A stretch of DNA of 64,000 nt. It comes from an uncultured Lentimicrobiaceae bacterium. Its GTDB lineage: Bacteria; Bacteroidota; Bacteroidia; Bacteroidales; F082. The stretch spans positions 19,049-83,048 of the forward strand of contig CAZDWA010000002.1 in the NCBI GenBank assembly GCA_964509065.1, written 5' to 3'. Both the position numbers and the translations under genes were made by a program. The notes below the pieces were generated by a model. That model had not been told where the DNA came from, searched no databases, and saw only the letters and a program-made list of their open reading frames with translations. Numbering within the stretch: position 1 is the first letter of the stretch; every line of letters starts with the position of its first letter. Positions 38,877 to 62,733 of the stretch are shown here, piece by piece.

Positions 38877-38896
38877 TGGTAATGGATTTATCATAA

Positions 38897-39123
38897 CCTG
38901 CATAATTCACCAATTCATAAGCTTGTCAATCAATATTTATTGTAATTGATTTGTGATCAATCTGTTAGAATGTTTTGCAGTGATTTAAAAAAGTGCTAAT
39001 TATAAAATGAATTTTGATTTAATTTTGGCAATTTTTACGTTATGAGCTGTTCGCAGTAGTTGGCTACAGCTTCACAGCTCACGCCTGAAAATCTCTCAAA
39101 ATTAAATTCATGAATTAAGCAGG
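38897..39123 (+). mobile_element. MITE-like element, full copy A (227 bp)
   Basis: The left end is CCTGCATAATTCA and the reverse complement of the right end is CCTGCTTAATTCA (12/13 terminal inverted repeat). It is flanked by ATAA on both sides (38893-38896 and 39124-39127). It lies between convergent queA and the thioredoxin-like gene. Confidence 0.75.
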
Positions 39124-39135
39124 ATAAACTAAAAA

Positions 39136-39152
39136 AGCCGGAAAATCCGGCT
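39136..39152. terminator. bidirectional rho-independent terminator
   Basis: AAAAA-AGCCGGA-AAA-TCCGGCT-TTTTT. The stem is flanked by an A-run and a T-run. It lies 9 nt from the stop of the minus-strand gene at 39161. Confidence 0.65.
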
Positions 39153-39160
39153 TTTTTAGT

Positions 39161-40270
39161 TTAATCTTCCAGCATTTCCGCAACTTTTTCCCGGAGATCT
39201 TTGCCCCTGAGATTTTTTGCAATAATAATTCCGTCAGCATCCAATAATACAGAATGAGGAATAGATTGTACGCCATATAATTTGCCGGCAGCATTTCCCC
39301 ATCCGTTTAAATCCGACACTTGTGTCCAAGTTAAATTATCTGACTCCACTGCAGCCAACCATTTTTCACGATCCGTATCAAAAGAAACACCAAATACATC
39401 AAAGCCTTTGTCGTGATAATCGGCATAAATTGAAACAATATTTGGGTTTTCGGCACGGCAGGGTCCACACCAAGCCGCCCAGAAATCAACAAGCAACAGT
39501 TTTGAACCTACCTTGGATGAAAGGCTTGTCATAATACCTTCCGGGTCTTCCTGAGAGAAATCCCTAAATGGCATTCCCACAGCAACGCTTTTCAATACGA
39601 GTACCCGTTCTTGTAGTGAAGTTAAATAAGATGAACTAACCTCCGAATCGAAATTGGATACCAATGATTCCAGCTCATCCAACTCAAATTGATAACTGTT
39701 TCTATATAAAATATAATGGGCTACCACATCTTTATCATTTTGTGAGATGAAGTCGGTCAAAAACTTGTTCTTTTCTACTTCTAACTTGTTAAATGCTTCA
39801 TCAGCAGCTTCTTTTGCCAGTTCATCACCGGATTCTTCTGCCGCCATATAATCCTTATAATGCTCGTACAATAACTCATCAAAACGATTTGATTTTTCGG
39901 TAAAACCAAGATAACGCTCATGTACATTGGAGCCGGAAATTACCGCATCGCGCATATCAGCTTGATTGATTTGGATTGTAATATCGGCCGGTTCGGCAAA
40001 AAATGGAATACTGCCACGCACATCTTCCAAATCAAGGAAAAGCATCTCCTCCTCATCCAAAAAACCTTGCAATACAAGTTGTCCGTTTTCAACCTGAGCC
40101 GAATCCAAAACAACCCATGAATCATCAAGCCTGCGTTGTACCTTTATCGTTTTCCCCTCGAAATCGTCAACGGCAATAAATAATTTGAACTGATCTGCCT
40201 TTTGCTCGGGCGATACAGCACATGAACTTAAAATGAAAATGGATAAGATGACTCCAATTAATTTTCTCAT
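39161..40270 (-). CDS. TlpA/AhpC-TSA family thiol:disulfide oxidoreductase lipoprotein
   Basis: 369-aa ORF with lipobox ILSSC. The C-terminal thioredoxin fold carries DFWAAWCGPC. The N-terminal ~230 aa resemble the accessory domain common in Bacteroidota TlpA-like proteins. Confidence 0.8.
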   Translation of the reverse strand: MRKLIGVILSIFILSSCAVSPEQKADQFKLFIAVDDFEGKTIKVQRRLDDSWVVLDSAQVENGQLVLQGFLDEEEMLFLDLEDVRGSIPFFAEPADITIQINQADMRDAVISGSNVHERYLGFTEKSNRFDELLYEHYKDYMAAEESGDELAKEAADEAFNKLEVEKNKFLTDFISQNDKDVVAHYILYRNSYQFELDELESLVSNFDSEVSSSYLTSLQERVLVLKSVAVGMPFRDFSQEDPEGIMTSLSSKVGSKLLLVDFWAAWCGPCRAENPNIVSIYADYHDKGFDVFGVSFDTDREKWLAAVESDNLTWTQVSDLNGWGNAAGKLYGVQSIPHSVLLDADGIIIAKNLRGKDLREKVAEMLED

Positions 40271-40405
40271 ATCGAAATTTTTTAATTATAACCTACAAAA
40301 CTATAAATAAATCGAACTTAGGACTTCACTCTATTCCGAATTTAACAAATAATTAAGGACTTAGCCGGGCTTTGGCTAATTAGCGATGTTTTAGACAGAA
40401 ATGTT

Positions 40406-40918
40406 TTATGATGAAGACCTCGAAACAAAAAAATAACTCAGCAACAGAATGATAATAATGGATGCAATACTGCTCAATGCAATACGAAGCAAGGTAAAAC
40501 CAAATCCATAAAAGCTAAAAACTTCCAATATAAACAGACTAAAATGATGTATGACCACCATGGTAAGCGTATAGGAAAGCCACCAACGGTCGCCCATTTG
40601 CGATAAGGAAGGAGCACCAATGTTTTCGGGCTCAAGACGGCCCGTAACCAAACGAATTACGGAAGGTCGGGCAAAGGCCATTAATACGGATGCTGCGGCA
40701 TGAAGTCCCGCTGTAGACATAAAGGAATCCATCAATAAGCCGGTGCCAAAGGCTGCTATCAACAACAACCAACCCGGGACACTAAAAGGCAGCATCATGA
40801 TGAATAAGATGTAAACAAAAGGATTTACATAGGCACCCAAATACATCTTATTCAGTATCCAAACCTGCAATAACATCAAGCCGGCAAAGCGTAATATCGG
40901 TATTATCACTTTATTCAT
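40406..40918 (-). CDS. mreD: rod shape-determining protein MreD
   Basis: 170-aa polytopic membrane ORF. It overlaps the end of mreC by 8 nt, in the mreB-mreC-mreD order. Confidence 0.7.
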   Translation of the reverse strand: MNKVIIPILRFAGLMLLQVWILNKMYLGAYVNPFVYILFIMMLPFSVPGWLLLIAAFGTGLLMDSFMSTAGLHAAASVLMAFARPSVIRLVTGRLEPENIGAPSLSQMGDRWWLSYTLTMVVIHHFSLFILEVFSFYGFGFTLLRIALSSIASIIIILLLSYFFVSRSSS

Positions 40919-41732
40919 TTGAACGAATTTTTGATAATTCTTCCAATTCTTCCTTATCCGAATTATAGATTACAAATGCATGCCGTAAGCTATTAAAATC
41001 GGTAGCAAAACGTATGCGTGCCGAGTTGAGACTCCCCTGTTCCGAAGGAATAAATTCCTCTACCGTGCCAACGACCATCCCCTCGGGAAACACAAACGAA
41101 TGACCGCTTGTAACAATCGTATCTCCCTGATTTAGCTCAACATGCGTGGGGATATCCACCACTTCGGCATAGCGATAATCACCTCCTTTCCAAACTAAGT
41201 TGGCAATTTGATTATCATGTTTTATACGTACACTCAAATTGGCATAACGGTGTAAAAGCGAAATAGCCGTTGCATATTTATTGGACACTCCAATAATAAT
41301 CCCGGCAACACCATCCGGACCAATCACCCCCATATCTTTTTGTATGCCGTCCTTTAAACCTTTATCCAAAATAAAATAATTATTTCGTTGCTGCACCGTG
41401 TTACTGACAACCCTGCATGGGATATATTCAAAAACTGCCGAATCCCCAATACTGTCATATACGGGAACAACTTCTTGCGCATAAAAGCTTAGCTGACGCT
41501 GCAGTTGGGCATTTTGCTCCTGTAATAATTGATTTTGCTTACGTAAACCAAAATAAGATTGAAAATTGGCGTTAACCGAATAAATTCTACCTGTCACGCT
41601 GTTTGAATAATTTGACAATACCGCCCGATGGTAGGTATGACTTCTGCTAAGTAATACTATAGATATCGCTTCCAACAGAATAAACAACAATATAAAATGA
41701 TGCTTCTGAAGAAATCGTAGCAAATTATTCAT
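40911..41732 (-). CDS. mreC: rod shape-determining protein MreC
   Basis: 273-aa ORF. It has an N-terminal TM segment, a coiled-coil region (QNQLLQEQNAQLQRQL) and beta-rich C-terminal domains (GDTIVTSG). It lies directly downstream of mreB. Confidence 0.85.
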   Translation of the reverse strand: MNNLLRFLQKHHFILLFILLEAISIVLLSRSHTYHRAVLSNYSNSVTGRIYSVNANFQSYFGLRKQNQLLQEQNAQLQRQLSFYAQEVVPVYDSIGDSAVFEYIPCRVVSNTVQQRNNYFILDKGLKDGIQKDMGVIGPDGVAGIIIGVSNKYATAISLLHRYANLSVRIKHDNQIANLVWKGGDYRYAEVVDIPTHVELNQGDTIVTSGHSFVFPEGMVVGTVEEFIPSEQGSLNSARIRFATDFNSLRHAFVIYNSDKEELEELSKIRSNE

Positions 41733-41754
41733 AACAGGGGCATATTTCCTTCAA

Positions 41755-42777
41755 TTATTTAATCAGGAAGGGGAATTTATCAAAGTTTTTCAATGCAATA
41801 CCTGTTCCTCTTGCCACTGCTCTCAGCGGGTCTTCAGCAACGTGTACGGGCAATTTGGTTTTTTGGTGAATTCGCTTATCCAGACCTCTCAGAAGTGAGC
41901 CGCCACCTGCCAAATAAATACCGGTACGGAAAATATCGGCAGACAGCTCGGGAGGCGTAAGCTCCAACGCATTTAAAACTGCCGTTTCAATCTTTGAAAT
42001 ACTTTTATCCAGACAATTTGCGATTTCGGTATAGTTTACCTTGATTTCCTTTGGAATACCCGTTAACATATCGCGTCCATGAACAGGAAATTCATCCGGC
42101 GGATTATCCAGTTGCGGTATTGCCGCACCAATTTCCATTTTAATACGTTCTGCCGTGCGCTCTCCAATATTGATATTGTGCTGTTTACGCATAAAATCAA
42201 TAATATCGGTATTAAAGTCATGGCCCGCAATGCGTATGGATGTGTTATTCACGATTCCGCCAAGCGCAATCACTGCAATTTCACTTGTTCCTCCTCCAAT
42301 ATCGATAATCATATTACCATTTGGCTCCAACACATCAATCCCGATACCAATCGCAGCAGCCATTGGTTCATGAATCAGGCGCACCTCTTTTGCACCGGCC
42401 TGCTCTGCCGAATCTTTTACGGCACGCTCCTCTACTTCTGTAATACCTGAAGGAATACAAATAACCATTTTTAAAGCCGGCGGAAATAGCCTGCTTTTTA
42501 TTCCAATCATCTTAATCATTTCACGCAGCATAAATTCGGCTGCCTGAAAGTCGGCTATAACACCATCACGCAAGGGGCGTATGGTTTTAATATTTTCATG
42601 CGTCTTACCGTGCATCATCATCGCTTTTTTTCCAACCGCGATAATTCGTCCGGTATTACGTTCAACAGCAACAATTGAAGGCTCGTCTACCACTACCTTG
42701 TCGTTGTACAAAATAATGGTATTGGCCGTGCCAAGGTCGATGGCAATTTCTTTATTTAGGAAAGATAAAAGTCCCAT
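41755..42777 (-). CDS. mreB: rod shape-determining actin-like protein MreB
   Basis: 340-aa ORF. Motifs are IAIDLGTANT, DIGGGTSEIAVI and YLAGGGSLLRGLD. Confidence 0.95.
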   Translation of the reverse strand: MGLLSFLNKEIAIDLGTANTIILYNDKVVVDEPSIVAVERNTGRIIAVGKKAMMMHGKTHENIKTIRPLRDGVIADFQAAEFMLREMIKMIGIKSRLFPPALKMVICIPSGITEVEERAVKDSAEQAGAKEVRLIHEPMAAAIGIGIDVLEPNGNMIIDIGGGTSEIAVIALGGIVNNTSIRIAGHDFNTDIIDFMRKQHNINIGERTAERIKMEIGAAIPQLDNPPDEFPVHGRDMLTGIPKEIKVNYTEIANCLDKSISKIETAVLNALELTPPELSADIFRTGIYLAGGGSLLRGLDKRIHQKTKLPVHVAEDPLRAVARGTGIALKNFDKFPFLIK

Positions 42778-42801
42778 AACTTTATAAAAAAGATAAGTTC
42801 G

Positions 42802-44316
42802 TTAATGTTTAAAATGTCTTATTCCGGTAAATACCATAGCCAGATTATTTGCATCGCAATAATCTATTGACTCTTGGTCTCGAATAGATCCGCCGGGTTG
42901 TATAATTGCCTGAACTCCTTCTTTATGAGCCAATTCTATTGAATCGGAAAAAGGGAAGAAGGCATCCGATGCCATGACGGCACCATTCAGGTCAAAGCCA
43001 AATTCTTTTGCTTTGGCGACAGCCTGTTTCAGGGAGTCAACCCTTGAGGTTTGTCCCATGCCGCTTCCTACAAGCTGTTGGTCTTTCGAAAGCACAATCG
43101 CATTGGAGCGGGTATGCTTAACAACTTTTAGTGCAAATAATAAATCTTGAATTTCTTTTTCATCGGCTTGGCGCTGCGTCACAAAAGTCAAATCAGCATC
43201 AGTTTCTATTTTTAAGTCAGACTCTTGCTCCAATATGCCATTCAATATGCTACGATATTGTTTTGTCGGCAATGCAAAAGGCTTCAACTTCAATATGATT
43301 CGATTTTTTTTGCTTATAAGCAGCTCCAGAGCTTCCGGCTCATAGTCAGGTGCAGCCAATATCTCGAAAAACAGGGAATTCATTTTTTCTGCGGTAGGCA
43401 GATCTATTGTTCTGTTTGCAACCAATACCCCGCCAAAAGCCGAAACCGGATCGGCATTAAATGCGGCTTCATATGCTTTGTCAAGACTTTCACGAATAGC
43501 CACACCGCAAGCATTATTATGCTTAAGAATGGCAAAAGCCGTTTGCTCAAACTCACTAATCAGCTTTAAGCCGGCATCCAAATCCAACATATTGTTGTAG
43601 GAAAGTGCTTTCCCGTTCAGCTGTTCAAACCATTCGTCGGCTTTTCCGAAAAACACAGCCTGCTGATGGGGGTTTTCTCCGTAACGCAAAAGCTGTTGAT
43701 TACGATAACTTACACGAAGTTCCTCCGGCTTGCCGTCCGAAAACCACTGATAAATAGCGGAATCATAATATGAGCTTTCCGCAAACGCATATGCTGCAAA
43801 CTTTTTACGTGCTGCCAAATTCGTGGCACAAGCTTGGCTTTCGAGCAATGCGAAGAGTTCATCATAATATCTTGCCGAGGCTACAATCAGCACTTCATGA
43901 AAGTTTTTTGCAGCAGCACGAATCAGTGAAATACCTCCAATATCTATTTTTTCGATAATTTCATCCGCATTTTGTGTTTTGGCAACCGTTTCTTCAAAAG
44001 GATATAAATCGACAATTACCAAATCGAAGGCAGGTATTTCGTATTTTTCCATCTCCTTGCGGTCACTTTCTTCGGAAAGGCGACCCAGGATACCTCCAAA
44101 CACTTTTGGATGCAATGTTTTTACTCTGCCGCCTAAGATAGACGGATATCCGGTAAGATCTTCAACCTTTTCAGCCGGTAAACCTAATCCTCGCAAAAAA
44201 TCATAGGTTCCACCGGTAGAAAATAAACGAACACCATGCTGGTGCAACAGCTTGGCGACAGGCTCCAAACCATCTTTGTAATAAACAGAAATTAAAGCAG
44301 TTTCAATCTTTTTCAA
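42802..44316 (-). CDS. purH: bifunctional AICAR transformylase / IMP cyclohydrolase
   Basis: 504-aa ORF. Motifs are ALISVYYKDGL, LFSTGGT, GGRVKTLHPKVFGGIL and the C-terminal GIRHFKH. Confidence 0.95.
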   Translation of the reverse strand: MKKIETALISVYYKDGLEPVAKLLHQHGVRLFSTGGTYDFLRGLGLPAEKVEDLTGYPSILGGRVKTLHPKVFGGILGRLSEESDRKEMEKYEIPAFDLVIVDLYPFEETVAKTQNADEIIEKIDIGGISLIRAAAKNFHEVLIVASARYYDELFALLESQACATNLAARKKFAAYAFAESSYYDSAIYQWFSDGKPEELRVSYRNQQLLRYGENPHQQAVFFGKADEWFEQLNGKALSYNNMLDLDAGLKLISEFEQTAFAILKHNNACGVAIRESLDKAYEAAFNADPVSAFGGVLVANRTIDLPTAEKMNSLFFEILAAPDYEPEALELLISKKNRIILKLKPFALPTKQYRSILNGILEQESDLKIETDADLTFVTQRQADEKEIQDLLFALKVVKHTRSNAIVLSKDQQLVGSGMGQTSRVDSLKQAVAKAKEFGFDLNGAVMASDAFFPFSDSIELAHKEGVQAIIQPGGSIRDQESIDYCDANNLAMVFTGIRHFKH

Positions 44317-44434
44317 GGCATTGTTTTGTAATGGTTACAATTTTGCAAGATTACAAAAAAAACATGGTTTTATTCACTAAATTGCAAGCATATTTAATGA
44401 ATGATTACTTTTACAGAATATTTGAGGATTTTTT

Positions 44435-45679
44435 ATGCTCATTCTGTTTCGTCTCATATCAGAAAGCTTTCTTTTTGCCATGGTGGCACTGATGGTAAAT
44501 AAAGTGCGTACCATCCTGTCATTGCTTGGAATTACGATTGGTATTTTCTCAATTATTGCATTGTTTTCGTTATTTGACAGCATGGAAGGAGCGATACGTG
44601 ATAACATCAGCTCATTGGGTGACAATGTCATATACATTCAAAAATGGCCTTGGAGCACAGGGGGCGATTATCCGTGGTGGAAATATTGGCAGCGCCCCGA
44701 AGCCAGCCTGCAGGAAATGATGGATTTAGAAAAACGCAGCCATACTGCGGAAGCAATGAGCTTGTTTGTACAAACAAACCGAAGCATGTCCTATGGCTCA
44801 GCCAGCTTGCCAAGGGTCTCGATACAAGCCGTATCGCATGCACATCCCGAAGTGATGCCTTTTGATTTGGATGAAGGACGTTATTTTACTGCCCTCGAGT
44901 CGCAGGTCGGTCGAAATGTGATTATTATTGGAGCAGATGTGGCAGCGGAATTGTTTCAAGGAGAAAATCCAATAGGAAAAACAGTAAAAGTATTCGGCAG
45001 ACGGTTGGAAGTAATTGGTCTTATTAAAAAACAAGGGGGCAATTTGTTTGGAAATACAAACGACAATTCTGCAATTATTCCACTAAATTTTGTTCGAAAT
45101 GTAATGGATATACGTGAAAGAGGCACCACTATTGCAGTAAAAGCCAAAGACCATATCAGCAATGAAGAGTTAAAAGATGAACTCACGGGTATCATGCGTT
45201 CGTTGCGAAAACTCAAACCAATGGAAGAAGATAATTTCTCAATTAATGAAATGGATATTATCAATAAATCCTTCGATCAGTTGTTTGGTATTATCGCAAT
45301 AGTTGGATGGATAATTGGAGGCTTTTCATTATTGGTGGGAGGTTTTGGCATTGCCAATATTATGTTTGTGTCGGTAAAAGAACGCACTGCTCAAATAGGA
45401 ATTCAAAAATCATTGGGTGCAAAAAACTACTTTATACTGTTGCAGTTTTTATTTGAGGCAGTCTTTTTATCTATTATTGGTGGTATTGTAGGTTTATTGA
45501 TTGTATGGCTTTTAAGCCTCGCCATCACAAACTTAAGTGAGTTTGCATTGGTACTTTCCGCTAAAAACATCTTACTTGGCTTGAGTGTTTCGGCATTAAT
45601 AGGCTTGGTTTCTGGTTTTATCCCGGCTTGGTCGGCATCACGCCTCGACCCGGTAGAAGCAATGCGATCAAGTTTTTAG
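44435..45679 (+). CDS. ABC transporter permease, MacB/FtsX-like
   Basis: 414-aa ORF. It has an N-terminal TM segment (NKVRTILSLLGITIGIFSI), a large periplasmic domain and a C-terminal FtsX-type 3-TM bundle (ERTAQIGIQKSLGAKN). Confidence 0.8.
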   Translation: MLILFRLISESFLFAMVALMVNKVRTILSLLGITIGIFSIIALFSLFDSMEGAIRDNISSLGDNVIYIQKWPWSTGGDYPWWKYWQRPEASLQEMMDLEKRSHTAEAMSLFVQTNRSMSYGSASLPRVSIQAVSHAHPEVMPFDLDEGRYFTALESQVGRNVIIIGADVAAELFQGENPIGKTVKVFGRRLEVIGLIKKQGGNLFGNTNDNSAIIPLNFVRNVMDIRERGTTIAVKAKDHISNEELKDELTGIMRSLRKLKPMEEDNFSINEMDIINKSFDQLFGIIAIVGWIIGGFSLLVGGFGIANIMFVSVKERTAQIGIQKSLGAKNYFILLQFLFEAVFLSIIGGIVGLLIVWLLSLAITNLSEFALVLSAKNILLGLSVSALIGLVSGFIPAWSASRLDPVEAMRSSF

Positions 45680-45762
45680 TTTTTTGCATAAGGTTTATCC
45701 TAAGCAATCAATCAAAAAAACAGAAAAGATTAAGTTGGTTTGTTTAAAGGGATTAGTGTAAA

Positions 45763-46313
45763 CTAAAGTTTTACTGAAATGCCTATGTTCATTTCTTTAT
45801 AATATCCAAGTTTCATGGGGTCTGTGAATGGCAAATCATATCCGTATTCAAAATATGCACCCACATGTCGAGTGAAGTAATAGGCTGCACCTATTCCAAA
45901 ATAATACCTGGCCAAACTGTTTGATTTGCATTTGTTTGAAAATATTTCACCAAGCCAAGCTTTCCGGAAAGGTAGGTTTCAAAACGAAGCTTCTCTTTGT
46001 CAATTATTAATGGAAGAAAATGCCAGTTGCCAACAGCTCCAAAGTTGAGAAAGCCATGGGTGTACTCATCAAATCCTTTATAAAGCGCAGTTGAAAGTCC
46101 GGCTTCAAATAATTTGTGCAAACGCCTGTTCAATTGCAGTTCGATATGACCCCTATGAAACACACGGTTATTATCAACATATTCGGGCCAGCCGGAGGCT
46201 TTAATATACCAATGAGCAGCTGGCTGCGCTTCTTGTGCTTGTAGTTTACCGGCAAAAAGAAGAAAGATAAAAGTGATTGTAAAAAACCTACGGAAAAATT
46301 GCTGTTTTTTCAT
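45763..46313 (-). pseudogene. small outer-membrane beta-barrel gene apparently split by a frameshift
   Basis: The 140-aa ORF 45891..46313 has signal peptide FIFLLFAGKLQAQ and stops at ...VWPGIILE*. The next frame continues YYFGIGAAYYFTRHVGAYFEYGYDLPFTDPMKLGYYKEMNIGISVKL* to 45763. That continuation looks like terminal beta-strands. Confidence 0.45.
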
Positions 46314-46644
46314 CTTACAATATTTTTAAACTGTGGTTTAATAATCTTACCTGCTATCAATTTTGAAATTCATCATATCAAAAACACCTTGTAAACTCAA
46401 TAATAAATTTATATGGCAAATTGCAGATTCAACATATCGAATTCAAAAAGTAGAAGAAATAAATGCCATCCTTATCATTTAATCTAATAAACAGGGTTTT
46501 TACGGATTCTTGAAATGAACACCAACAATATCATTATGATATGTTCTTTTTTTATCAACGCATAAACTAAATGAAGATTGTTTAATCCCTTCAAATGGGT
46601 TCAATAATATTTTTTAGACTAACAAATGTGGGTTACAAATCAAC

Positions 46645-46710
46645 GTATAGCTACCACTTCACAGCTCACGCCTGAAAGTTTCTCAAAATTAAATTCATGA
46701 ATTAAGCAGG
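46645..46710 (+). mobile_element. truncated MITE copy B (right-end ~65 bp only)
   Basis: ...CTACCACTTCACAGCTCACGCCTGAAAGTTTCTCAAAATTAAATTCATGAATTAAGCAGG matches the right end of the full copies nearly base for base. There is no left end. Confidence 0.65.
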
Positions 46711-46968
46711 CAAAGGCTAAAACTTGGCTTAAAAAGTGTTTTATTTATGGCTATTTGAAGAGGTTTTCTATCCAAAGTTAGGAGTTTATAGAATAAAATT
46801 ACTGATATTCAATAGGATAATAAAATATACAATAATTTTTGTTATCTTTCAAAGCAGATTTGGCTTAATTAAATGTGTTTCAGTGTTTTAGATATATTTT
46901 TAATTTTGAATTAAAATTCATTTTTTTTGTCTGCCGAATCTTATTATCTTTACAAATTAAACAGGAGA

Positions 46969-49326: not shown

Positions 49327-49361
49327 TCGTTCACAAAGGTAAATAAACAAATGAGCTTTAG

Positions 49362-49590
49362 CCTGCATAATTCACCAATTCATAAGATTATCAATCTAAC
49401 TTTATCGTAATAAGCTTATGATCATTGTGTTAGTAAGTTTTAGTAGGATTTTTAAAAAGCGTTTATTATAAAATGAATTTTGATTTAATTTTGGCAATTT
49501 TATACGTTATGAGCTGTTCGCAGTAGTTGGCTACAGCTTCACAGCACATGCCTTAAAATTTCTCAAAATTAAATTCATGAATTAAGCAGG
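49362..49590 (+). mobile_element. MITE-like element, full copy C (229 bp)
   Basis: It has the same termini as copy A. It is flanked by a perfect TTAG duplication (49358-49361 and 49591-49594). It lies in the divergent intergenic region between the HdeD-like gene and the GH109-like gene. Confidence 0.75.
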
Positions 49591-49768
49591 TTAGCACAAT
49601 TCAGCAAATTAAAAAACAAGTTTACATTATCCGATTATAATTGTTTGTATAACACACAAGCCTCATCGAAGCATTGTTTTCACATGGATTAAAGTATTTT
49701 CTGCTGAACCGAATTTTTCCACAAAGTTTCATTATTTTTGAACTTTCATAACCCTAAAGCAGACACCC

Positions 49769-51115: not shown

Positions 51116-52185
51116 TGGAATCAAGGCAGCGGAAAGAAACAAAAATTCCTTTGGAGGTATTACAAGGATTTGGTTTACGAGCAGAAGATGAAATAATAGC
51201 CTATGGCGAAGGAATCATCCAAAACACTTATGCCGTAAAACGTTCAGGACAAGCAATTTATATATTGCAACGAATTAATACTCAAGTATTTAAACATCCA
51301 CACAAAATTGCCGAAAACTGGAAGCTTGCTATGGCACATATCCGACAGCATGCAGCGGAATATCCATTTGTTGCGTTTAAAGAAACAATTGAAGGCAAAC
51401 CATATGTAGAAGATAAATTGGGCAGCTATTGGCGCCTTCAAGATTTTATCCAAAACAGCTGCAGCTTTACAACTCCTTCCGGACCCACAATGGTACGTCA
51501 AGCAGCAGCTGCATTCGGTAGATTTGCCGCTGTGATGACAACTGCAAACAGCGAAACATTTCATCATATCATACCGGATTTTCACAACTTGGAGCTGCGC
51601 CAAAACCAATTTGATTTGGCAGTGGAAGCTGCCGGAATCGTGCGTAAGAAGCAAGCAGACAACTTGGTAAAAAAGCTAACAAATTACCGCCAAATCACGG
51701 AAATCTACAAAGAAGCCGTGCAAAATATGCCTTTGCGCATACTCCATATGGATGCAAAAATGGGCAATATCTTATTTGACTGTAACAGCTTGGAATTCAA
51801 AGCAATTATTGACTATGATACATTAATGCCTGCATATATTTTCTCTGATTTAGGAGACTTAATACGAAGTATGAGCTGTATGGCAGACGAAAATGAAATT
51901 AATTTAGAAAAAGTAAAAGTTCAAAAAGACTATTTAGATATCTTATTCAACACCTATTTGGCTGAAGTGAATGAGTTTTTAACTGATGCCGAAAGAAAAT
52001 ACATCCGATATGCAGGACATATATTGGTATATATGCAGGCTTTACGCTTTTTAACCGATTTTTTACAAAATGATATTTATTATAAAATCGCGTATCCGGA
52101 GCACAACCTTAATCGCGCACAAAATCAAGCTAAACTACTGGAAGAGCTTATATTAGTAATGGGATTTAAATGCATCAGCCCCTGA
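51115..52185 (+). CDS. aminoglycoside phosphotransferase (APH)/choline-kinase-fold protein, possibly a sugar 1-kinase
   Basis: 356-aa ORF. Its ATG overlaps the upstream TAA by 1 nt (TTAATGG). The kinase catalytic loop is LHMDAKMGNILFD, followed by IIDYDT (DxD metal site). Confidence 0.6.
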   Translation: MESRQRKETKIPLEVLQGFGLRAEDEIIAYGEGIIQNTYAVKRSGQAIYILQRINTQVFKHPHKIAENWKLAMAHIRQHAAEYPFVAFKETIEGKPYVEDKLGSYWRLQDFIQNSCSFTTPSGPTMVRQAAAAFGRFAAVMTTANSETFHHIIPDFHNLELRQNQFDLAVEAAGIVRKKQADNLVKKLTNYRQITEIYKEAVQNMPLRILHMDAKMGNILFDCNSLEFKAIIDYDTLMPAYIFSDLGDLIRSMSCMADENEINLEKVKVQKDYLDILFNTYLAEVNEFLTDAERKYIRYAGHILVYMQALRFLTDFLQNDIYYKIAYPEHNLNRAQNQAKLLEELILVMGFKCISP

Positions 52186-52876
52186 TGGCAATTTCTTTCA
52201 GCTTGTCCAAATTTAATATTTCAATTGATTTTCCATCAATCGAAATAATATCTTCTGATTCAAACTCCTTGAGTATACGCGTGGTGCTTTCTTTTGTCAT
52301 ATTTGACATTTCCCCCATCTCATGACGTGTGATATTAAGCGTGAAAGCCAAATCTTTAAACACAGTATCACTGAGATAAATCAAGGTGTCGGCCATGCGC
52401 CCATGCATCTGCTTCTGGGTTAAACTGATTAAACGGTCAAAGTTAACCGTGCTATTATTGTTACAATAACGTAATACTGCTTCCGAAAAATCCGGATTGG
52501 AACGAATGACTTTCCGCACATTTTCAGTAGGAATAAAACAGGCAACACTATCTCCAATTGCAGCTACACTATATTGATAACGCATATCCGTAAAAACACC
52601 CGGACCACCAAAAAACTTAAATGGAATCAGGATATCAAGAATAAGATTCTTTTTGTCAATCCCTTCCAAATACAATTTTGCCATCCCATTGATGAGCATT
52701 ATCATATGTGAGGCAGCCGTGCCTTGTTTTATAATGTTTTCTCCGGCATTAAATTGCACTTCAAACCTGCCGTCATTTATCATTTCCAACTCATCATTGC
52801 TAAGCATATTAAACAAGGGCGAACGTTCGTTACAAGTCGCACAGTTTAAACAGTATTCTGACCTTTTGCTAAGCAT
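52175..52876 (-). CDS. Crp/Fnr family transcriptional regulator with a Cys-rich N-terminus
   Basis: 233-aa ORF. The N-terminus contains YCLNCATCNERS. It has a cNMP-like beta-roll and a C-terminal HTH (TRHEMGEMSNMTKESTTRILKEF). Confidence 0.75.
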   Translation of the reverse strand: MLSKRSEYCLNCATCNERSPLFNMLSNDELEMINDGRFEVQFNAGENIIKQGTAASHMIMLINGMAKLYLEGIDKKNLILDILIPFKFFGGPGVFTDMRYQYSVAAIGDSVACFIPTENVRKVIRSNPDFSEAVLRYCNNNSTVNFDRLISLTQKQMHGRMADTLIYLSDTVFKDLAFTLNITRHEMGEMSNMTKESTTRILKEFESEDIISIDGKSIEILNLDKLKEIAIRG

Positions 52877-53055
52877 AATTTGAAGTTGATATTATTATTT
52901 ATCTATAAAGATATTGATTTAAAATACAAAAGTAAGTGATTTATCTTACTTATAAAAAAATTAATTTTCGCCATAAGATGTAGATTTCACATTCTTTTGG
53001 CTTCAATATTTAAACAATTTTCATGCCTTTATGTTTTTGCAAACTCGTATTTACC

Positions 53056-53087
53056 ATCATGAATAAGCGAGTAAGTGAATTAAGCAG
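53056..53087 (+). mobile_element. possible degenerate solo right end of the MITE family (copy D)
   Basis: TCATGAATAAGCGAGTAAGTGAATTAAGCAGG ends with the 12-nt GAATTAAGCAGG terminus and is followed by ATAA, as in copy A. This is only a short match. Confidence 0.3.
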
Positions 53088-53218
53088 GATAAAATCATTG
53101 GTTTCAAGTAAATAAATTGTCATAACAGATAAAAATGGCGATAAATTTTGTTAAAATTTTTATTCATCTGAATTAATCAATTAGGTTTACATCATATTTT
53201 GGAACCTACTGCTGCAAT

Positions 53219-53968
53219 ATGGTTTTTAATAGCTACTTCAAAAAGTCATCAGTTTTCTCGCGCTTTGTTTTTGTATTAAGTTTTTTGTTCATCCTCAATC
53301 AATTACAAGCCCAATCTTTACAAAGCGACATCCATCTTCGGGCAGGATTGTCTCAGCCTATCTTGAAATATGCGTCAACGAATTTATCCGAAGGCGGTTT
53401 CACATCGAGTGGTTTTAGTGGGTCTTTGGCAATAAACAGCTTGATAAACAACAAAATAGGCTTGCATATACAAGGTGGATTACAATTACATCCGTTGGAT
53501 GTGAGCGAGTTAGGCTATGCATTGGTACAAAGTGATCCATTTTTGACTGATGTGTACATACGCTCTGAACCTTATCGTATCATACATTTTACTGCAGGAC
53601 CCGTATATCGCATGAAGCTATTGAAAAACACAAGCTTGGATATGCGCTTGATGGGAGGCATCTTCAACAGTTACAGCCCCTATCAGCTTTATAAACCGGT
53701 TTATTATTTACACGGACCGCCCTATTATGAGATTACCACTTCCCTTTCGCGAACATTTGCATACGGTGGAGGGCTTTCTATCATCCAAAACTTAGGTGGC
53801 TGTTATTATTTGGCACTGGAGACTGATTTTTTATATTCGAAAGCACAGTTTCAGTTTTATGGCTCCGGCGGATTACGTACTGATAGTCAACATATAAGCT
53901 TTATAAATACACATATTTCATTACATATTGTATTGCCAGACATCCAATTGTCCAGGCAGAAAAAATAG
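53219..53968 (+). CDS. hypothetical outer-membrane beta-barrel-like protein
   Basis: 249-aa ORF. The signal peptide is FVFVLSFLFILNQLQAQ. Amphipathic strand patterns are rich in G/Y/S. I recognise no family. Confidence 0.4.
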   Translation: MVFNSYFKKSSVFSRFVFVLSFLFILNQLQAQSLQSDIHLRAGLSQPILKYASTNLSEGGFTSSGFSGSLAINSLINNKIGLHIQGGLQLHPLDVSELGYALVQSDPFLTDVYIRSEPYRIIHFTAGPVYRMKLLKNTSLDMRLMGGIFNSYSPYQLYKPVYYLHGPPYYEITTSLSRTFAYGGGLSIIQNLGGCYYLALETDFLYSKAQFQFYGSGGLRTDSQHISFINTHISLHIVLPDIQLSRQKK

Positions 53969-54032
53969 CACCGCTTCAGATAGTTCATCATGATAAATTG
54001 CATTCGACATATTTTATAATTTTGTAAACTGT

Positions 54033-54671
54033 ATGAAATATTTTCGCTTTATCCTATTTGGTTTCTTTTTTAGTCTATGCACGCTGAGTGTATTGGCTCA
54101 AGACCGCATGTGGGTTGAAGGCGAAATATATACGGCTGACAGCTTGTTGCCCATCAAGAATGTACATGTCATCAGTCGGTTGAACCGACGGGGTACCATT
54201 AGTGATGAGGCAGGGAAATTTAAGCTTCCCGCCCGAACAGTTGACACCATTATGTTTTCTGCCATCGGCTTTCAACGATCCATTATGGCATTTGACAGTA
54301 CGATGACCGCAGATGGGAAAGCTTGGAAAATTTTACTTCGAAAAGATACCATATGGATGGATGAGGTAGTGGTGCGTTCCTTTTATGACTGGCCAACATT
54401 TAAACAGTTGTTTGTCAATATGCAGCCGGTAAAACCCGTGAAGCTAGATAATATTCAAGATGATTTAAAAGATATACTGTTGTATATGGACCCCGCTCCT
54501 ATGACGATAAAAGGTCCTATTCAAGCATTGTATGATATATTCAATGATGCGGCACGGCTGCAGAGGCGCCTGCAGCGTAACAGAAGGGTTTATAACGAAC
54601 AACTAATGAAAGAAGGGCGCTATGACGAATTGATACCCGAAGAGCCCGAGCACGAACGTCAAGCGCCATAA
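54033..54671 (+). CDS. carboxypeptidase-regulatory-like domain protein, function unknown
   Basis: 212-aa ORF with a signal peptide. The N-terminal module is VEGEIYTADSLLPIKNVHVISRLNRRGTISDEAGKFKL...IMFSAIGFQ. Confidence 0.5.
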   Translation: MKYFRFILFGFFFSLCTLSVLAQDRMWVEGEIYTADSLLPIKNVHVISRLNRRGTISDEAGKFKLPARTVDTIMFSAIGFQRSIMAFDSTMTADGKAWKILLRKDTIWMDEVVVRSFYDWPTFKQLFVNMQPVKPVKLDNIQDDLKDILLYMDPAPMTIKGPIQALYDIFNDAARLQRRLQRNRRVYNEQLMKEGRYDELIPEEPEHERQAP

Positions 54672-54674
54672 AGT

Positions 54675-57188
54675 TTAAAGCTTTTTATCAGGATACATCA
54701 TATTCCATTTTCCGGGCTGATTTTTTAGTTCCTTTTCGAACCAAGCCATAATGGTATTATGCCATTCGATACGCTTTTTGTAATCCAAAATATGATGATC
54801 TTCACCGCTAACCAACACCATTTCCACATCCTTACCCAATATTTTTAAAGCTGCATAAAACTGTAAGCTTTCTCCGACAGGAACATTGGTATCCTCCGTT
54901 CCATGCAGCAATAATATGGAGTTTTGAAATTTATCTGCATTAAAAAGCGGGCTGTTTTCTACATAAATATCTTTTCTGTTCCACGGATAGCTTCCTTTAG
55001 TAGCTCCGGCACTGTAGGAATATCCCCAATAACCTTCACCCCAATAGCTTGTGATATCACTAATTCCGGCATGCGAAACAGCAGTTTTGAATATATCGGT
55101 TCGGGTTTGCAGCATCATGGTTGTAAAACCTCCGTAAGAAGCGCCGATACAACCTACATTTTCAGCATCAGCGGAAGGATGCGCAGCTAAAAACTGCTTT
55201 GTTCCTTCAATGATATCATCAATAGCTTCGGCACCCCAGCCATTGACATGCAAAGCAGAAAAATCTTGTCCAAATCCGGTGGCTCCACTCGGCTGCATCA
55301 CATAAACAATATAATCGTTGGCTGCCCAGATATTTTTTGGATAACGTCCTCCAAAAGTACGGTCGGTAGGTGTTGTGCCCCCATAAAAGTTGACAATTAC
55401 CGGATATTTCTTTGCGGGATTATAATCCAATGGATAATACACCCTGCCATAAATTGTCGTACCCGCTTCATTTTCAAAATTCCAGTCTTCAGTAGCTCCA
55501 AATTGAACAGCTTTCAATTGTTGCTCCTTAGGATATAGCAACAAATTGGATTTGCCTGTCGTCAAATCCAATGAATACAGCTTATGCGGGCTGTCAATAC
55601 TGCTTCCGTTAAATGCTGCCAAGGCTTTTGAAGAAGCATAATCAATTGAACTAATTACTTCTTCGGGCACTTCTATCTTGGTGAAATTTCGCTTTTTTAA
55701 ATCCAATTTATACAAATTGACATAATCTTTTTCAACCACTGTCATATACACCAAGCCGTCTTTTGCCCAATATGCATTTCGTATCGCCGGGTCGAAGTCA
55801 CGCGTCAATGCTTCTACCGTTTTATCTTTTAAATCAAATAAATACAACTGTCTGTCGCTTACATTCGGGATTCTCCCTTCGCTCACATTAACTCCCAAAT
55901 CGCCGAAGCTTTCGGGGCTTCCTGATACCAAAAGTTTGTTTCCATCCGCCGAATACTGGCAATAGGCGCCATATCGTTTATCCTGCCAAATGGTGTCGAG
56001 CTGCATGCTTGTCAAATCCATCTCAAACAAATCTTGTGTTGAAAAAGGAATGCCTGTATAGTCGGTTTTTGAGATTGAAAACAATATCTTGCTGCCATCG
56101 GGTTTAATGGCATGCAAGGATGCCGAAAGATTTCCCGCTGTGAGCTGTTGTACATGCTTTGATTTTAAATTATAAGCATATAAGTGCGTGCGATTTCGAT
56201 TATTGGGTATTCTGTCATCATTTGTAAACACCCGTTTCAAATCGCCTGTTTTATCTGCTTTCAGCGTTTTTGAAAACACAAAAAAGCTCTCATCCTCCGC
56301 CCATACAATTCTGCCAGGATTACTTAGTGCTTCTGCCACACGCAACTCCTCGCCTTTTTGTACATCAAACACAAAAATATCAGCCAATTCGCCTTTTTGC
56401 TGTTTATAAAACAGCTTATCGCTGTTTGGAAGCCAAGATGCATACAATGCTGAATTTCGAAGCATCATGATAGTGGCTTTCTTTTCCATATCATAAATAC
56501 GCGAATAACGCTGTGTGATGCCGCTTTCCGCCAGCACTTCCGACATATTCAGCAATAAATATTTACCCGAAGGAGATAAACTTGCCGAGCTTACTGATTC
56601 ACCTTCCAATACATCATGTATCGACAGCTTTCGCTGCGGATTGCTATTCCAGCTGATAAGCGCTTCGGATTCTTTGTCGGCAGTGCTAAGCTCCGCTTTG
56701 AAATAAGCTGAATCATTGACAGCCAACATCCTGATTAGCATATAATTATCGCCATTATCAACGGTTAAATCCGTGAGCACGGCTTTTTGAGAAACTCGGC
56801 TTTGTGTTTTTATCTTTTTTCCATTCAGAGAAACATCAAAAATTGTGTTGGATGAAATGGAGAGGCTCAATTTTGCCCATCGGTCTATCGAAAAGAATCC
56901 GGCAAGTTGTACCAAGCTGTTTTCTTCTTTTATATCATAAAGCAGGCTGTCTTGGTCAAATTGCAGCTCTTTCCAATCGAATATATCATGATAGCTGACA
57001 TGCACCGACTCCAACAAAGAGGCTTGGTCAAAGTCTTTACCGTCAACTGTTTGAATATCGTTAAAGGCAGGTAAATATACTTTTTGCGGATTAGATATTT
57101 TCCATTGATCACAACTGATTGTTTGTTGTGCCATACTAAGCTGTCCGACAACTAATAACAAAAGCAAGAGGCTGAATAGTTTTTTCAT
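54675..57188 (-). CDS. S9 family serine peptidase (prolyl oligopeptidase/dipeptidyl-peptidase type) with N-terminal beta-propeller
   Basis: 837-aa ORF with a signal peptide. The catalytic Ser context is GCIGASYGGF, with LLLHGTEDTNVP (Asp) and GEDHHI (His). Confidence 0.85.
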   Translation of the reverse strand: MKKLFSLLLLLLVVGQLSMAQQTISCDQWKISNPQKVYLPAFNDIQTVDGKDFDQASLLESVHVSYHDIFDWKELQFDQDSLLYDIKEENSLVQLAGFFSIDRWAKLSLSISSNTIFDVSLNGKKIKTQSRVSQKAVLTDLTVDNGDNYMLIRMLAVNDSAYFKAELSTADKESEALISWNSNPQRKLSIHDVLEGESVSSASLSPSGKYLLLNMSEVLAESGITQRYSRIYDMEKKATIMMLRNSALYASWLPNSDKLFYKQQKGELADIFVFDVQKGEELRVAEALSNPGRIVWAEDESFFVFSKTLKADKTGDLKRVFTNDDRIPNNRNRTHLYAYNLKSKHVQQLTAGNLSASLHAIKPDGSKILFSISKTDYTGIPFSTQDLFEMDLTSMQLDTIWQDKRYGAYCQYSADGNKLLVSGSPESFGDLGVNVSEGRIPNVSDRQLYLFDLKDKTVEALTRDFDPAIRNAYWAKDGLVYMTVVEKDYVNLYKLDLKKRNFTKIEVPEEVISSIDYASSKALAAFNGSSIDSPHKLYSLDLTTGKSNLLLYPKEQQLKAVQFGATEDWNFENEAGTTIYGRVYYPLDYNPAKKYPVIVNFYGGTTPTDRTFGGRYPKNIWAANDYIVYVMQPSGATGFGQDFSALHVNGWGAEAIDDIIEGTKQFLAAHPSADAENVGCIGASYGGFTTMMLQTRTDIFKTAVSHAGISDITSYWGEGYWGYSYSAGATKGSYPWNRKDIYVENSPLFNADKFQNSILLLHGTEDTNVPVGESLQFYAALKILGKDVEMVLVSGEDHHILDYKKRIEWHNTIMAWFEKELKNQPGKWNMMYPDKKL

Positions 57189-57392
57189 TTGTTTAAAATT
57201 TTGCTTGGATATAATTTAAGCCCGAAAGTTACATTAAAAGATGCATTCAAATGCGAAAAACCAGTTTTTGGTATACTAAATTCAGCATATGGCTGCAATA
57301 CATCAAACTTAATGTGTAAATCACAGCAACTTAAAAGTAAGAAAGAAAAAATCTGTGTATTAGACCAATTTTAAAGGAAAAAGTTGAGGAAT

Positions 57393-59162
57393 TTATCTGT
57401 GAAACAACAACTGATAATCTTTTTCTTTGGCTTTCTTCCAATATTTTTTAGGCTTTATTTTCCAGTTATCCAGTAATTTAGGAGCAACAAGCTGCTTTTC
57501 TTCAATCCATTTCATCAGATAAAACCGCAAGTCTTTTTCTGTCGAGCTAAGGATTCTTTTGCTGAGCTCAGCTTGTGGAATACCTGCGCCTCGAGTCAAA
57601 TGACCACCTCCTCCATTGGCACGGTATGAATTGACCGCCACCTTGTATTTTTGTTCGAGCTCAAACGGTTTTCCGTTTACAAATCGCTTGATTTTTACTC
57701 TGCTCCCAATGGATTTTCGAACATCTACAGTGTAAATAATGCCGGCTGCCGATTCATAATTATAATATCGCGCTGTCAATTCGGGCGATTGTGTGCGTTC
57801 ACTAAAAATAATTTTTCCACTCTCATCGGTATTAAACCGCAGCAAATGATCCGATTTCTTATGCATTTGATTAAACCATGCCGCATAGGAGTATTCCAAA
57901 TAATCTTGAATCTCCTTCCCGCTCAACTCAATGGTATACAACAAGTTTTCAAAGCTGTACAAATCGAACATATCCTTCACTTGTATGCTTCCTTTTTCAA
58001 TTGTTGCATTAAAAGAAAGCGGTGCGGTAAATGAAATATCCGCATCCGTCAGTTCAAGTTGTATATTATGTATTAAATCCACGAATTTTGAGGGTCCAAA
58101 AAGCGCTTCACGCGAATAAAGTGTTTCTGTAAATTCTCCGATAATACGACCTACATATGCTTTTACTTCCTCCTGCTTTTTTCCGAATTTTGCCATAAAT
58201 TCAGCATCGGGACTATAATCTGCCATGCTTATCAAGCTACCTGCCACAGCAGTTTTAGAATAGCTTTTTCCGCCATCACTCGATTCCAAGTCGATATCGG
58301 CTACCGCCACATTTCTAGCACCCGAAGTAGTTCCTAAAATCAATACGTCTTGGTCATCACTGTTTTTTGTTTCAAAATTCCATCCGCTATGATCATGCCC
58401 CACAAAAACTATATCAAATCCGGGAACTTGCTCCGCAACTAAGCGAGAGGCATTTTCATTTTTATAACCTTCTTTTGTGCCACCACCATACGTATAATCC
58501 ACTCCGGCATGAAATAGCCCTATCATTAAATCGGGTTGCTCGCTTTCCATAATATATGGAACCCACTTTTTAGCCGTTTCTATCATATCTTCAAAATGCA
58601 TTCCGGCATAAAGATTTTCGGGCAACCAGTTTGGGATGGAAGGCGTTACAAGCCCAAGAACTGCTATTTTTACACCTCCCCTTTCCAGCACATGATAAGG
58701 CGCAAAATAGGATTTGTCGTCTGCAGTATGAATGGCATTTGCCGCTAGCCAAGGAAAGTTGATGGTTTCCCTGAATTTATCGTATACCGGATGCCCGGTT
58801 TCCACATCATGGTTGCCAACTGTTGCCACATCATATTGCATGAAATTCATTACCTCGGCATATAAATGCGGCTCGTCAGTTTTTTCAAAATTGAAATAAT
58901 ATACCACAGGGGTGCCCTGAAGTATATCACCATTATCTACTAAAAATACAATCTGACTGGTGTCAGCCCGTTGTTCTTTGATATAGGTTGTTACATGTGC
59001 CAAAGAAGCATTCAGCGGTCGTTCTTTAATGAAATTATACGGGAAAACAGCTCCGTGCACATCAGAAGTTTCAATGATTTTTACATGTTTTGTTTGGGAA
59101 AAGACTGAAAACCAGGCAAAAACAAATAAAACTAAAAAGGAAAGTCGTAGGTTATTCAACAT
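57393..59162 (-). CDS. bifunctional metallophosphatase / 5'-nucleotidase (UshA-like)
   Basis: 589-aa ORF with a signal peptide. Metallophosphoesterase motifs are ETSDVHG, DNGDILQG, GNHDVETG and VGHDHSG. A C-terminal 5'-nucleotidase domain follows. Confidence 0.8.
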   Translation of the reverse strand: MLNNLRLSFLVLFVFAWFSVFSQTKHVKIIETSDVHGAVFPYNFIKERPLNASLAHVTTYIKEQRADTSQIVFLVDNGDILQGTPVVYYFNFEKTDEPHLYAEVMNFMQYDVATVGNHDVETGHPVYDKFRETINFPWLAANAIHTADDKSYFAPYHVLERGGVKIAVLGLVTPSIPNWLPENLYAGMHFEDMIETAKKWVPYIMESEQPDLMIGLFHAGVDYTYGGGTKEGYKNENASRLVAEQVPGFDIVFVGHDHSGWNFETKNSDDQDVLILGTTSGARNVAVADIDLESSDGGKSYSKTAVAGSLISMADYSPDAEFMAKFGKKQEEVKAYVGRIIGEFTETLYSREALFGPSKFVDLIHNIQLELTDADISFTAPLSFNATIEKGSIQVKDMFDLYSFENLLYTIELSGKEIQDYLEYSYAAWFNQMHKKSDHLLRFNTDESGKIIFSERTQSPELTARYYNYESAAGIIYTVDVRKSIGSRVKIKRFVNGKPFELEQKYKVAVNSYRANGGGGHLTRGAGIPQAELSKRILSSTEKDLRFYLMKWIEEKQLVAPKLLDNWKIKPKKYWKKAKEKDYQLLFHR

Positions 59163-59236
59163 TATATTTGGATTTTAAACTGCAAAAATAAGATTATGTA
59201 GTGTATTTCAGTCAGTTCACGCCGAATCAATCTTAA

Positions 59237-59463
59237 CCTGCATAATTCACCAATTCATAAGCTTGTCAATCTAATTTAATCGTAATAAGCTTATAATCAT
59301 TTCGTTAGCAGAGTTTAGAAGTGACTTAAGCAAGTCTTTATTATAAAATGAATTTTGATTTAATTTTGCAATTTTTACGTTATGAGCTGTTCGCAGTAGT
59401 TTACTACAGCTTCACAGCTCACGCCTGAAAATTCCTCAAAATTAAATTCATGAATTAAGCAGG
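59237..59463 (+). mobile_element. MITE-like element, full copy E (227 bp)
   Basis: It has the same termini as copy A. The flanks are TTAA (59233-59236) and CTAA (59464-59467). Its right end supplies the last codons and the stop of the gene at 59448..59903. Confidence 0.75.
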
Positions 59464-62409: not shown

Positions 62410-62733
62410 ATGAACTGGCTTATACTGATTATTGCAGGTCTTTTTGAAACCGGTTTTGCAGCTTGCTTGGGCAAAGCCCATCAAACAAAAGGCGCTGAAT
62501 CAATGTGGTGGTTTATAGGCTTTTTAGTTTCTTTGACAATCAGCATGGTATTGCTGTACAAAGCCACGGAAAGCTTACCCATAGGGACTGCTTACGCCGT
62601 ATGGACCGGCATTGGCGCAGTAGGGACTGTGTTATTCGGGATTTTCTTCTTAAATGAACCCACCGACCTGTGGCGGATGTTTTTTATCAGCACCTTGATA
62701 TTTTCAATAATCGGCCTGAAAATGGTTTCATGA
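62410..62733 (+). CDS. sugE: SMR family small multidrug/guanidinium exporter (SugE/Gdx-like)
   Basis: 107-aa ORF with 4 TM segments. The N-terminus MNWLILIIAGLFETGFAACLG contains the essential membrane Glu. Confidence 0.85.
   Translation: MNWLILIIAGLFETGFAACLGKAHQTKGAESMWWFIGFLVSLTISMVLLYKATESLPIGTAYAVWTGIGAVGTVLFGIFFLNEPTDLWRMFFISTLIFSIIGLKMVS

Follow-up and report, generated by a model that had tools for sequence, protein, structure and literature searches.

A probable family of miniature inverted-repeat transposable elements with a palindromic right half, recently mobile in uncultured Lentimicrobiaceae

Copies of the element in the window

The window analysed here, 64,000 nucleotides of contig CAZDWA010000002.1 from an uncultured Lentimicrobiaceae bacterium, represents unremarkable chromosomal DNA of a Bacteroidota genome whose G+C content is about 40%. 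Its genes include queA, truB, mreBCD, purH, recJ, ribF and asd as well as those for glycosidases and for cargo proteins of the type IX secretion system. Among them lie three full copies and one truncated copy of a repeat of 227 to 229 bp (Table 1), which can with a probability of roughly 93% be assigned to a family of small, non-coding, non-autonomous transposons, i.e. MITEs (miniature inverted-repeat transposable elements), recently mobile in uncultured Lentimicrobiaceae.

The three full copies had been described before by a model that read the letters and a list of open reading frames (ORFs) only (in the following, the sequence-only reading). Their positions were confirmed exactly, and the flanking tetranucleotides, reread from the window, are as given there. 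The inverted match of the termini CCTGCATAATTCA and TGAATTAAGCAGG, counted directly, was likewise reproduced with 12 of 13 positions and 16 of 20 over 20 nt; the resulting terminal inverted repeats (TIRs) are imperfect and comprise about 21 to 24 bp (CCTGCATAATTCAccAATTCA... and ...TGAATTAAGCAGG). An alignment of the copies showed a conserved left part of about 25 to 35 nt, a conserved right part of about 115 to 125 nt and a variable centre, in agreement with the earlier description of a conserved left end and a nearly identical right end. The absence of transposase genes from the window, also claimed before, agrees with the domain scans, since none of the 45 non-overlapping window ORFs of at least 100 amino acids (aa), either scanned or covered by precomputed Pfam hits, showed a transposase domain; eight of the 45 showed no Pfam or NCBIfam match at all. 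Two claims held in part. While copies 1 and 2 are intergenic, as stated for all copies that were not at gene ends, copy 3 takes the place of the final codons of a gene, including its stop codon. The common orientation holds for all four window copies, which lie on the plus strand, but such agreement would arise by chance in one of eight cases and carries no significance, and no bias relative to the neighbouring genes was found across 46 copies.

A search with the 25-nt left end gave three occurrences in the window and with the 25-nt right end four, compared to no match of either in 100 shuffles. With an nhmmer profile built from 43 full copies, no further remnant beyond the four copies was detected in the window.

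Table 1. Coordinates of the element copies, their flanks and their modules in the window
Feature	Position	Strand	Description
MITE copy 1 (227 bp)	38897-39123	+	Flanked by queA and a thioredoxin-like gene in convergent arrangement, just upstream of a terminator-like hairpin
Copy 1 flanks	38893-38896 / 39124-39127		ATAA / ATAA, exact 4-bp duplication
Left terminal block, copy 1	38897-38920	+	CCTGCATAATTCACCAATTCATAA, 24 nt with two AATTCA hexamers, identical in both subfamilies
Right module, copy 1	39009-39123	+	Core box GAATTTTGATTTAATTTTGG, imperfect palindrome (34 pairs) and invariant 29-nt right end
MITE copy 2 (229 bp)	49362-49590	+	Divergent intergenic region between DUF308/HdeD-like and GFO_IDH_MocA/GH109-like genes
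Copy 2 flanks	49358-49361 / 49591-49594		TTAG / TTAG, exact 4-bp duplication
MITE copy 3 (227 bp)	59237-59463	+	Overlaps the end of a minus-strand 151-aa gene (59448-59903)
Copy 3 flanks	59233-59236 / 59464-59467		TTAA / CTAA, 3/4 match
Right modules, copies 2 and 3	49475-49590 and 59350-59463		Equivalents of the copy 1 module
Truncated copy 4	46649-46710	+	Right ~60 nt only (model positions 167-228), upstream of recJ
Element ends			CCTGCWTAATTCA...TGAATTWAGCAGG

Copy number and target-site duplication

Beyond the window, where the sequence-only reading had proposed to count copies, a scan of the genome collection with the 22-nt right end gave at least 56 additional loci, distributed over three metagenome-assembled genomes (MAGs) of Bacteroidota. 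Among the matches listed, about 36 belong to a Lentimicrobiaceae MAG, about 19 to a Flavobacteriaceae MAG (CAZBXQ01) and one to a Weeksellaceae MAG, the last being a solo end of about 25 nt only. The family is thus abundant in an uncultured Lentimicrobiaceae lineage, which includes the window, and in a Flavobacteriaceae MAG. In total, 159 loci were fetched (labelled L001 to L159 in the following).

An exact duplication of 4 bp flanked 38 of the 47 two-ended copies, compared to 5.5 on average and 13 at most when the right flanks were permuted (2000 trials), whereas duplication lengths of 2, 3, 5 and 6 bp showed no enrichment. The most frequent duplicated tetranucleotides were CTAA (11), TTAG (5), TTAA (4), TTAT (4) and TAAA (3), and TACA, ATTC and TTTT occurred as well; CTAA, TTAG or TTAA account for 20 of the 38 exact duplications. 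Since the tetranucleotide varies from copy to copy, it represents a true duplication outside of the element. The reconstructed targets show the palindromic consensus T-YTAR-A, so that the earlier claim of TA-centred 4-bp duplications arising from transposition is borne out by a far larger set of copies. All 46 examined copies lie outside of long ORFs.

Filled and empty sites in related strains

Contig CAZQBU010000016.1, from a MAG labelled 'uncultured Lentimicrobiaceae', matches the window at 93 to 97% identity, and 21 kb of it (L138) were retrieved via MreB, a protein identical in window and MAG. On this contig copies 1 and 4 are present, while window positions 49379-49590, which represent copy 2, are absent. 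The corresponding MAG stretch is 93 to 95% identical, aligns without gaps and contains a single TTCG. At the junction the MAG reads ...AAATGAGCTTTCGCACAATTCAGC..., compared to ...AAATGAGCTTTAGCACAATTCAGC... for the window after removal of the element and one TTAG, the tetranucleotide differing at one base. An empty site lacking a single copy of the 4-bp flank had been named in the sequence-only reading as an outcome that would speak against transposition; at copy 2, the site holds one tetranucleotide in a gapless alignment.

Relatives of the copy 3 locus were found via an identical protein of the small multidrug resistance (SMR) family, which led to the MAG (L150) and to the long Logan contigs L148 and L149. 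In these three, copy 3 is absent, and the nucleotidase gene and a 148-aa gene lie 49 bp apart. Two other samples (L152, L154) carry copy 3, since the first 24 nt of their contigs are the final 24 nt of the element. The family has been on the move since the divergence of strains with about 95% nucleotide identity. The earlier interpretation of the repeats as dispersed, non-autonomous, TIR-bounded and transposing is supported by the duplications, the empty site of copy 2 and the polymorphism of copy 3.

Copy 1 has an orthologous copy in the MAG (L038/L138), and its right end lies at contig ends in Logan assemblies. Since this right end terminates contigs from seven samples, none of the recovered assemblies that extend to the site lacks copy 1. 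In general, Logan short-read contigs (L137, L139-L147, L152, L154, L159) begin or end 24 to 28 nt inside the element ends, and the element is therefore a systematic assembly breakpoint. Distant relatives were also considered as empty sites; the 80 metagenome loci without a copy, with orthologues of at most 81% aa identity, were rejected as too diverged at the nucleotide level.

Two further observations concern the surroundings of copy 3. The reconstructed target region (window 59180-59500) resembles the right arm of the element, with a local alignment score matched by 6 of 2000 shuffles. The adjacent 589-aa nucleotidase gene (window 57393-59162) is absent from the closest metagenome relative (81% aa identity; L057 8574-11632), in which a dipeptidyl-peptidase gene directly adjoins the orthologue of the 151-aa gene.

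Modules, subfamilies and derivatives

Most two-ended copies have a length of 225 to 230 bp, and the ORFs within copies are short, none exceeding 43 aa, and are not conserved from copy to copy. The small size (about 50 to 1000 bp in MITEs), the missing coding capacity for a transposase, the TIRs, conserved here across 47 copies and both subfamilies, a duplication of constant length and dispersed copies with insertion polymorphism and empty sites are among the features by which a MITE is defined. A further one is an autonomous partner with matching TIRs, which was not found in the searches described below. The copies from Lentimicrobiaceae and Flavobacteriaceae form two subfamilies, which are about 62% identical overall and have three exact blocks in common: the left 24 nt CCTGCATAATTCACCAATTCATAA, the internal 20-nt core box GAATTTTGATTTAATTTTGG and the right 29 nt. 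The left block is presumed to be the transposase-binding TIR. Since the copies of the Lentimicrobiaceae set range from 74 to 100% in pairwise identity (mean 87%), the family is old but still active.

Besides the two-ended copies of typical length, derivatives were found that keep the ends and mostly also the duplication. Four short copies of 126 to 134 bp, occurring in both subfamilies, lack exactly the hairpin described below, which was deleted between AAAAT direct repeats at the hairpin base. A mini-element of 41 bp lies at locus L020, and composites of about 572 bp at loci L030 and L021 show the left end CCTGCATTCC and duplications of TTAG and CTAT. In the Flavobacteriaceae MAG, one MITE copy (L035) contains a nested palindromic insertion of about 160 bp with the ends GAGGTTATTTAAACTTT...AAAGTTTAAACCACCTC, and another small repeat, a module carrying the inverted repeat GTCATTTCGA...TCGAGATGAC, lies upstream of several copies (L021, L025, L030, L056).

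The right-half palindrome

Roughly the right 110 to 115 nt form a long imperfect palindrome, i.e. a hairpin of 34 pairs that lies wholly in the right half. Its base consists of the core box GAATTTTGATTTAATTTTGG paired, in inverted orientation, with the subterminal (inner) stretch of the right TIR. Over 35 distinct sequences, 98.1% of the cells were paired, compared to at most 59% when the partners were slid as a control, and eight pairs were changed on both sides, compared to zero to three in the slid controls. Between the subfamilies the inner stems are nearly wholly different and still paired (GAGCTGT/ACAGCTC compared to GAAATCC/GGATTYC, and GTAG/CTAC compared to ATAG/CTAT). The compensatory variation comprises essentially one phylogenetic contrast, plus within-subfamily changes at pairs 39-72 and 40-71.

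Folding of the right half resulted in z-scores of -3.8 and -4.6, and the consensus energy was -19.2 kcal/mol for the reverse strand compared to -12.6 kcal/mol, so that the reverse strand folds at least as well. Since both strands fold equally well, the folding would be in line with RNA as well as DNA and with either strand. The idea of a strand asymmetry in G·U compared to A·C pairs was dropped for the same behaviour of the reverse strand and because rare variants showed no G·U bias.

The recurrent loss of the hairpin in the short copies is the outcome that slippage across an extruded palindrome would give, and the precision of these deletions at the hairpin base suggests extrusion in vivo. 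Since hairpin-less short copies exist in both subfamilies, the hairpin is dispensable for persistence, and any role of the palindrome would be a putative one. Read from the sequence, each arm contains a TAnnTTTG motif, which corresponds to the -7 box of Bacteroidota. A promoter was nevertheless rejected, since a -33 TTTG is missing at the right spacing from TAnnTTTG and the orientation relative to genes is unbiased. An outward sigma-70-like promoter at the left end was discarded as irrelevant to Bacteroidota promoters.

Origin of the repeats

The observed duplications, the target consensus and the alleles with and without the element are best explained by a MITE family that a DDE-type transposase, encoded elsewhere, would mobilise in trans. 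Such an enzyme would cut T-YTAR-A targets with a 4-bp stagger, and repair of the gaps would duplicate the central tetranucleotide. Some points weigh against this explanation. Nine of the 47 two-ended copies lack a perfect 4-bp duplication, although two of these fit 5 bp. The empty allele of copy 3 is not clean, since the window contains, in addition to the element and the duplication, 11 further nt (ATCAATCTTAA) adjacent to the site. A deletion between AAT microhomologies flanking the insertion or an unrelated indel would produce such an allele, and the 11-nt difference and the resemblance of the target region to the right arm may point to an old remnant or an excision footprint. Moreover, the mobilisation in trans and the class of the enzyme can only be deduced, because an autonomous parent with matching ends was not found in the searches described below. 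Finally, the compensatory changes in the palindrome stem essentially from a single split between the subfamilies, and concerted evolution of the two arms could account for them without a function.

A different origin, in which the repeats are not mobile but represent genes for structured small RNAs or cis-regulatory RNAs at fixed positions, was already raised in the sequence-only reading as the reading to be set against transposition. The long right-half hairpin with its compensatory changes and the TAnnTTTG motif in each arm would be in line with such genes. However, the duplications and empty sites show insertion at sites that are polymorphic, and in the window no Rfam family was detected at the gathering or E-value threshold, sub-threshold matches falling on the adjacent terminator. 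Based on the duplications, the empty sites and the missing Rfam match, a fixed structured-RNA family is excluded for practical purposes, and the unbiased orientation relative to genes, the equal folding of either strand, the lack of a properly spaced -33 TTTG and the persistence of hairpin-less variants render it very improbable as well. The palindrome beside one end and the deletions precisely at its base, which suggest extrusion in vivo, would also be compatible with hairpin-dependent single-strand transposons, i.e. palindrome-associated elements derived from IS200/IS605 or REP/BIME-like elements moved by an HUH transposase. Elements of the IS200/IS605 and REP type comprise neither TIRs nor a target duplication and carry subterminal hairpins at both ends. 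In contrast, the repeats analysed here show TIRs and statistically robust duplications, the flanking tetranucleotide varies among copies yet matches on both sides of each copy, and the hairpin is found at one end only. Because of the TIRs and duplications this origin is excluded too, with barely any probability left to it. Altogether, a previously undescribed MITE family of a well-known kind remains, and searches of Rfam, IMG/VR and the collections of plasmids and phages gave no match to the element.

Search for the parent transposase

A parent with matching ends was found neither in the window nor in the 159 fetched loci nor in the plasmid and phage collections, and a pattern scan of IMG/VR gave no match. 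About 1.5 Mb of fetched DNA contained no insertion sequence with such ends. Within the fetched loci, a search of the 3 kb upstream of each right end for left-end motifs returned only neighbouring copies (e.g. L020, L017), an all-against-all blastn showed no multi-copy DNA of at least 350 bp apart from MITE-related composites, and pairs of CCTGC...GCAGG at a distance of 600 to 3500 bp were chance pairs only. A tblastn search with the E. coli IS5 transposase gave nothing in the fetched loci, which is weak evidence, since these loci were not selected to contain the parent.

The sequence-only reading had guessed at an IS5-group insertion sequence as parent. IS5 duplicates 4 bp at YTAR-like targets, and in this respect the guess fits, as the size of the duplication and the targets (with CTAA, TTAG and TTAA in the lead) match this behaviour. 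The termini, on the other hand, do not agree with it. IS5-like ends (5'-GG/GA...) were not found; IS5A of E. coli K-12 begins GGAAGGTGCG, and the ends GGAAGGTGCG...CGCACCTTCC of E. coli IS5, of the type GG...CC, stand against CCTGCAT and CC...GG in the element. The known MITEs of Porphyromonas gingivalis, a member of the same phylum, all pair with IS5-family elements, which speaks for such a parent, but the ends of these elements begin GAGACC... or ACGTCAG... and are unlike CCTGCAT (PMC4596501). Taking into account the negative, if weak, tblastn result, an IS5-group parent appears possible but doubtful.

Slightly favoured on balance is a mobiliser from another group with 4-bp duplications, which could be IS1380-like (piggyBac-related), IS701-like or undescribed. 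In the ISfinder table, ends of the IS1380 family begin with CC and duplications comprise 4 to 5 bp. The 5'-CC termini of the element, the 4-bp duplications and the two cases of 5 bp would agree with these features. Members of the IS701 family duplicate exactly 4 bp, as observed here, while their published end consensus (---YACT-Y--YR) is unlike CCTGCATAATTCAC; according to the same source, this consensus does not cover the whole family (PMC2266710). IS701 and IS1380 would fit at least as well as IS5, although no candidate element was recovered from either group. A more specific proposal, which we regard as rather unlikely, combines an undescribed transposase group with a function of the palindrome. 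The group would be characterised by CC...GG ends, a strict 4-bp duplication at T-YTAR-A and a TIR of about 24 bp that contains AATTCA repeats, and it might be related, as a prokaryotic group, to IS1380/piggyBac. The covarying palindrome, sequestering the inner half of the right TIR, would in addition act as a functional cis element, in the form of a hairpin of single-strand DNA or RNA, that tunes transposition or the expression of neighbouring genes.

Effects on genes and rearrangements

Copy 3 lies 15 nt short of the end of the gene for a conserved membrane protein of about 150 aa. The final five codons (SLLNS) of the 151-aa protein and its stop codon come from the right end of the element, so that the C-terminus reads ...AGIKFSLLNS* in the window compared to ...AGIKFGLK* in the empty alleles (L148, L149, L150).

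At the copy 4 locus (window 45763-46710), the window retains 566 bp (46084-46649) of an outer-membrane-protein-like gene next to the truncated element, the gene being broken up into two ORFs (140 aa and 50 aa). In the MAG (L001 6115-6664, L138), a full element is found instead, whose left end abuts the interior of this gene, which is truncated to 112 aa. The flanks ATAA/CAAA do not match, and the 566 bp of the window are missing. Since the same junction also occurs in three Logan samples, it is no assembly artefact of the MAG. The arrangement in the MAG would be explained by a deletion that the transposase caused next to the element, or else by recombination between two directly repeated copies.

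At copy 2, the left terminus, read in reverse, provides ATGCAGG (window 49366-49368, minus strand), which lengthens the DUF308/HdeD-like ORF by 21 codons into the element. The gene comprises 203 aa with these codons, compared to 182 aa as called in the MAG and in the Logan contig, and the element-derived ATG is a likely cause of start-codon mis-annotation.

Comparison with known elements and significance

Like the bacterial MITEs Correia (Neisseria), RUP (Streptococcus pneumoniae) and ERIC, the element is small, non-coding, AT-rich and multi-copy, has TIRs and target duplications, is found in intergenic regions or at gene ends, can fold into a long hairpin and can remodel gene ends. It differs from them by its unrelated sequence and by a hairpin that lies wholly in the right half instead of being formed by both ends. 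Correia elements have 26-bp TIRs and duplicate TA, compared to TIRs beginning CCTGC and a 4-bp duplication at T-YTAR-A in this family. The MITEs of P. gingivalis (BrickBuilt, MITEPgRS/MITE464, MITE239, MITE700) are likewise intergenic and non-autonomous, are present in 10 to 20 or more copies and are linked to rearrangements from strain to strain. However, their TIRs (GAGACC..., ACGTCAGTTCGA) correspond to ISPg elements of the IS5 family and differ from CCTGCATAATTCA, their duplications are irregular, and they contain internal tandem repeats rather than a palindrome (PMC4596501).

While the general understanding of MITEs remains unchanged, the family adds an abundant, recently active mobile element in Lentimicrobiaceae and Flavobacteriales known from metagenomes, in which mobile DNA is almost unstudied. 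Its practical relevance lies in the breaks of short-read assemblies exactly at its ends, in altered gene termini such as the C-terminus rewritten by copy 3, and in marking deletion sites between strains of about 95% identity. With its sharply delimited ends and target, the family offers a precise handle for finding the responsible transposase. Possibly novel are only two leads: the covarying palindrome, which is a testable candidate for a cis-acting module kept by compensatory changes, and the fact that CC...GG ends are combined with a YTAR target, which is unusual.

Other features of the region

An island of about 8.7 kb was found between the SMR efflux gene and an Exo_endo_phos gene in the MAG and in two Logan samples (window 62733-62789 compared to L148 10378-18794, L150 and L151), while it is absent from the window, L149 and L152-L154. 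The island is restriction-modification-like and encodes ResIII/RE_endonuc (888 aa), a 231-aa protein, an MmeI-like N6_Mtase (1020 aa) and an N6_N4_Mtase (661 aa). Elsewhere in the window, a tandem pair of 30-bp units (87% identical) is located at 24954-25013 inside a 2057-aa ORF (23885-30058), and its translation, as read from the letters, is a glycine-rich motif.

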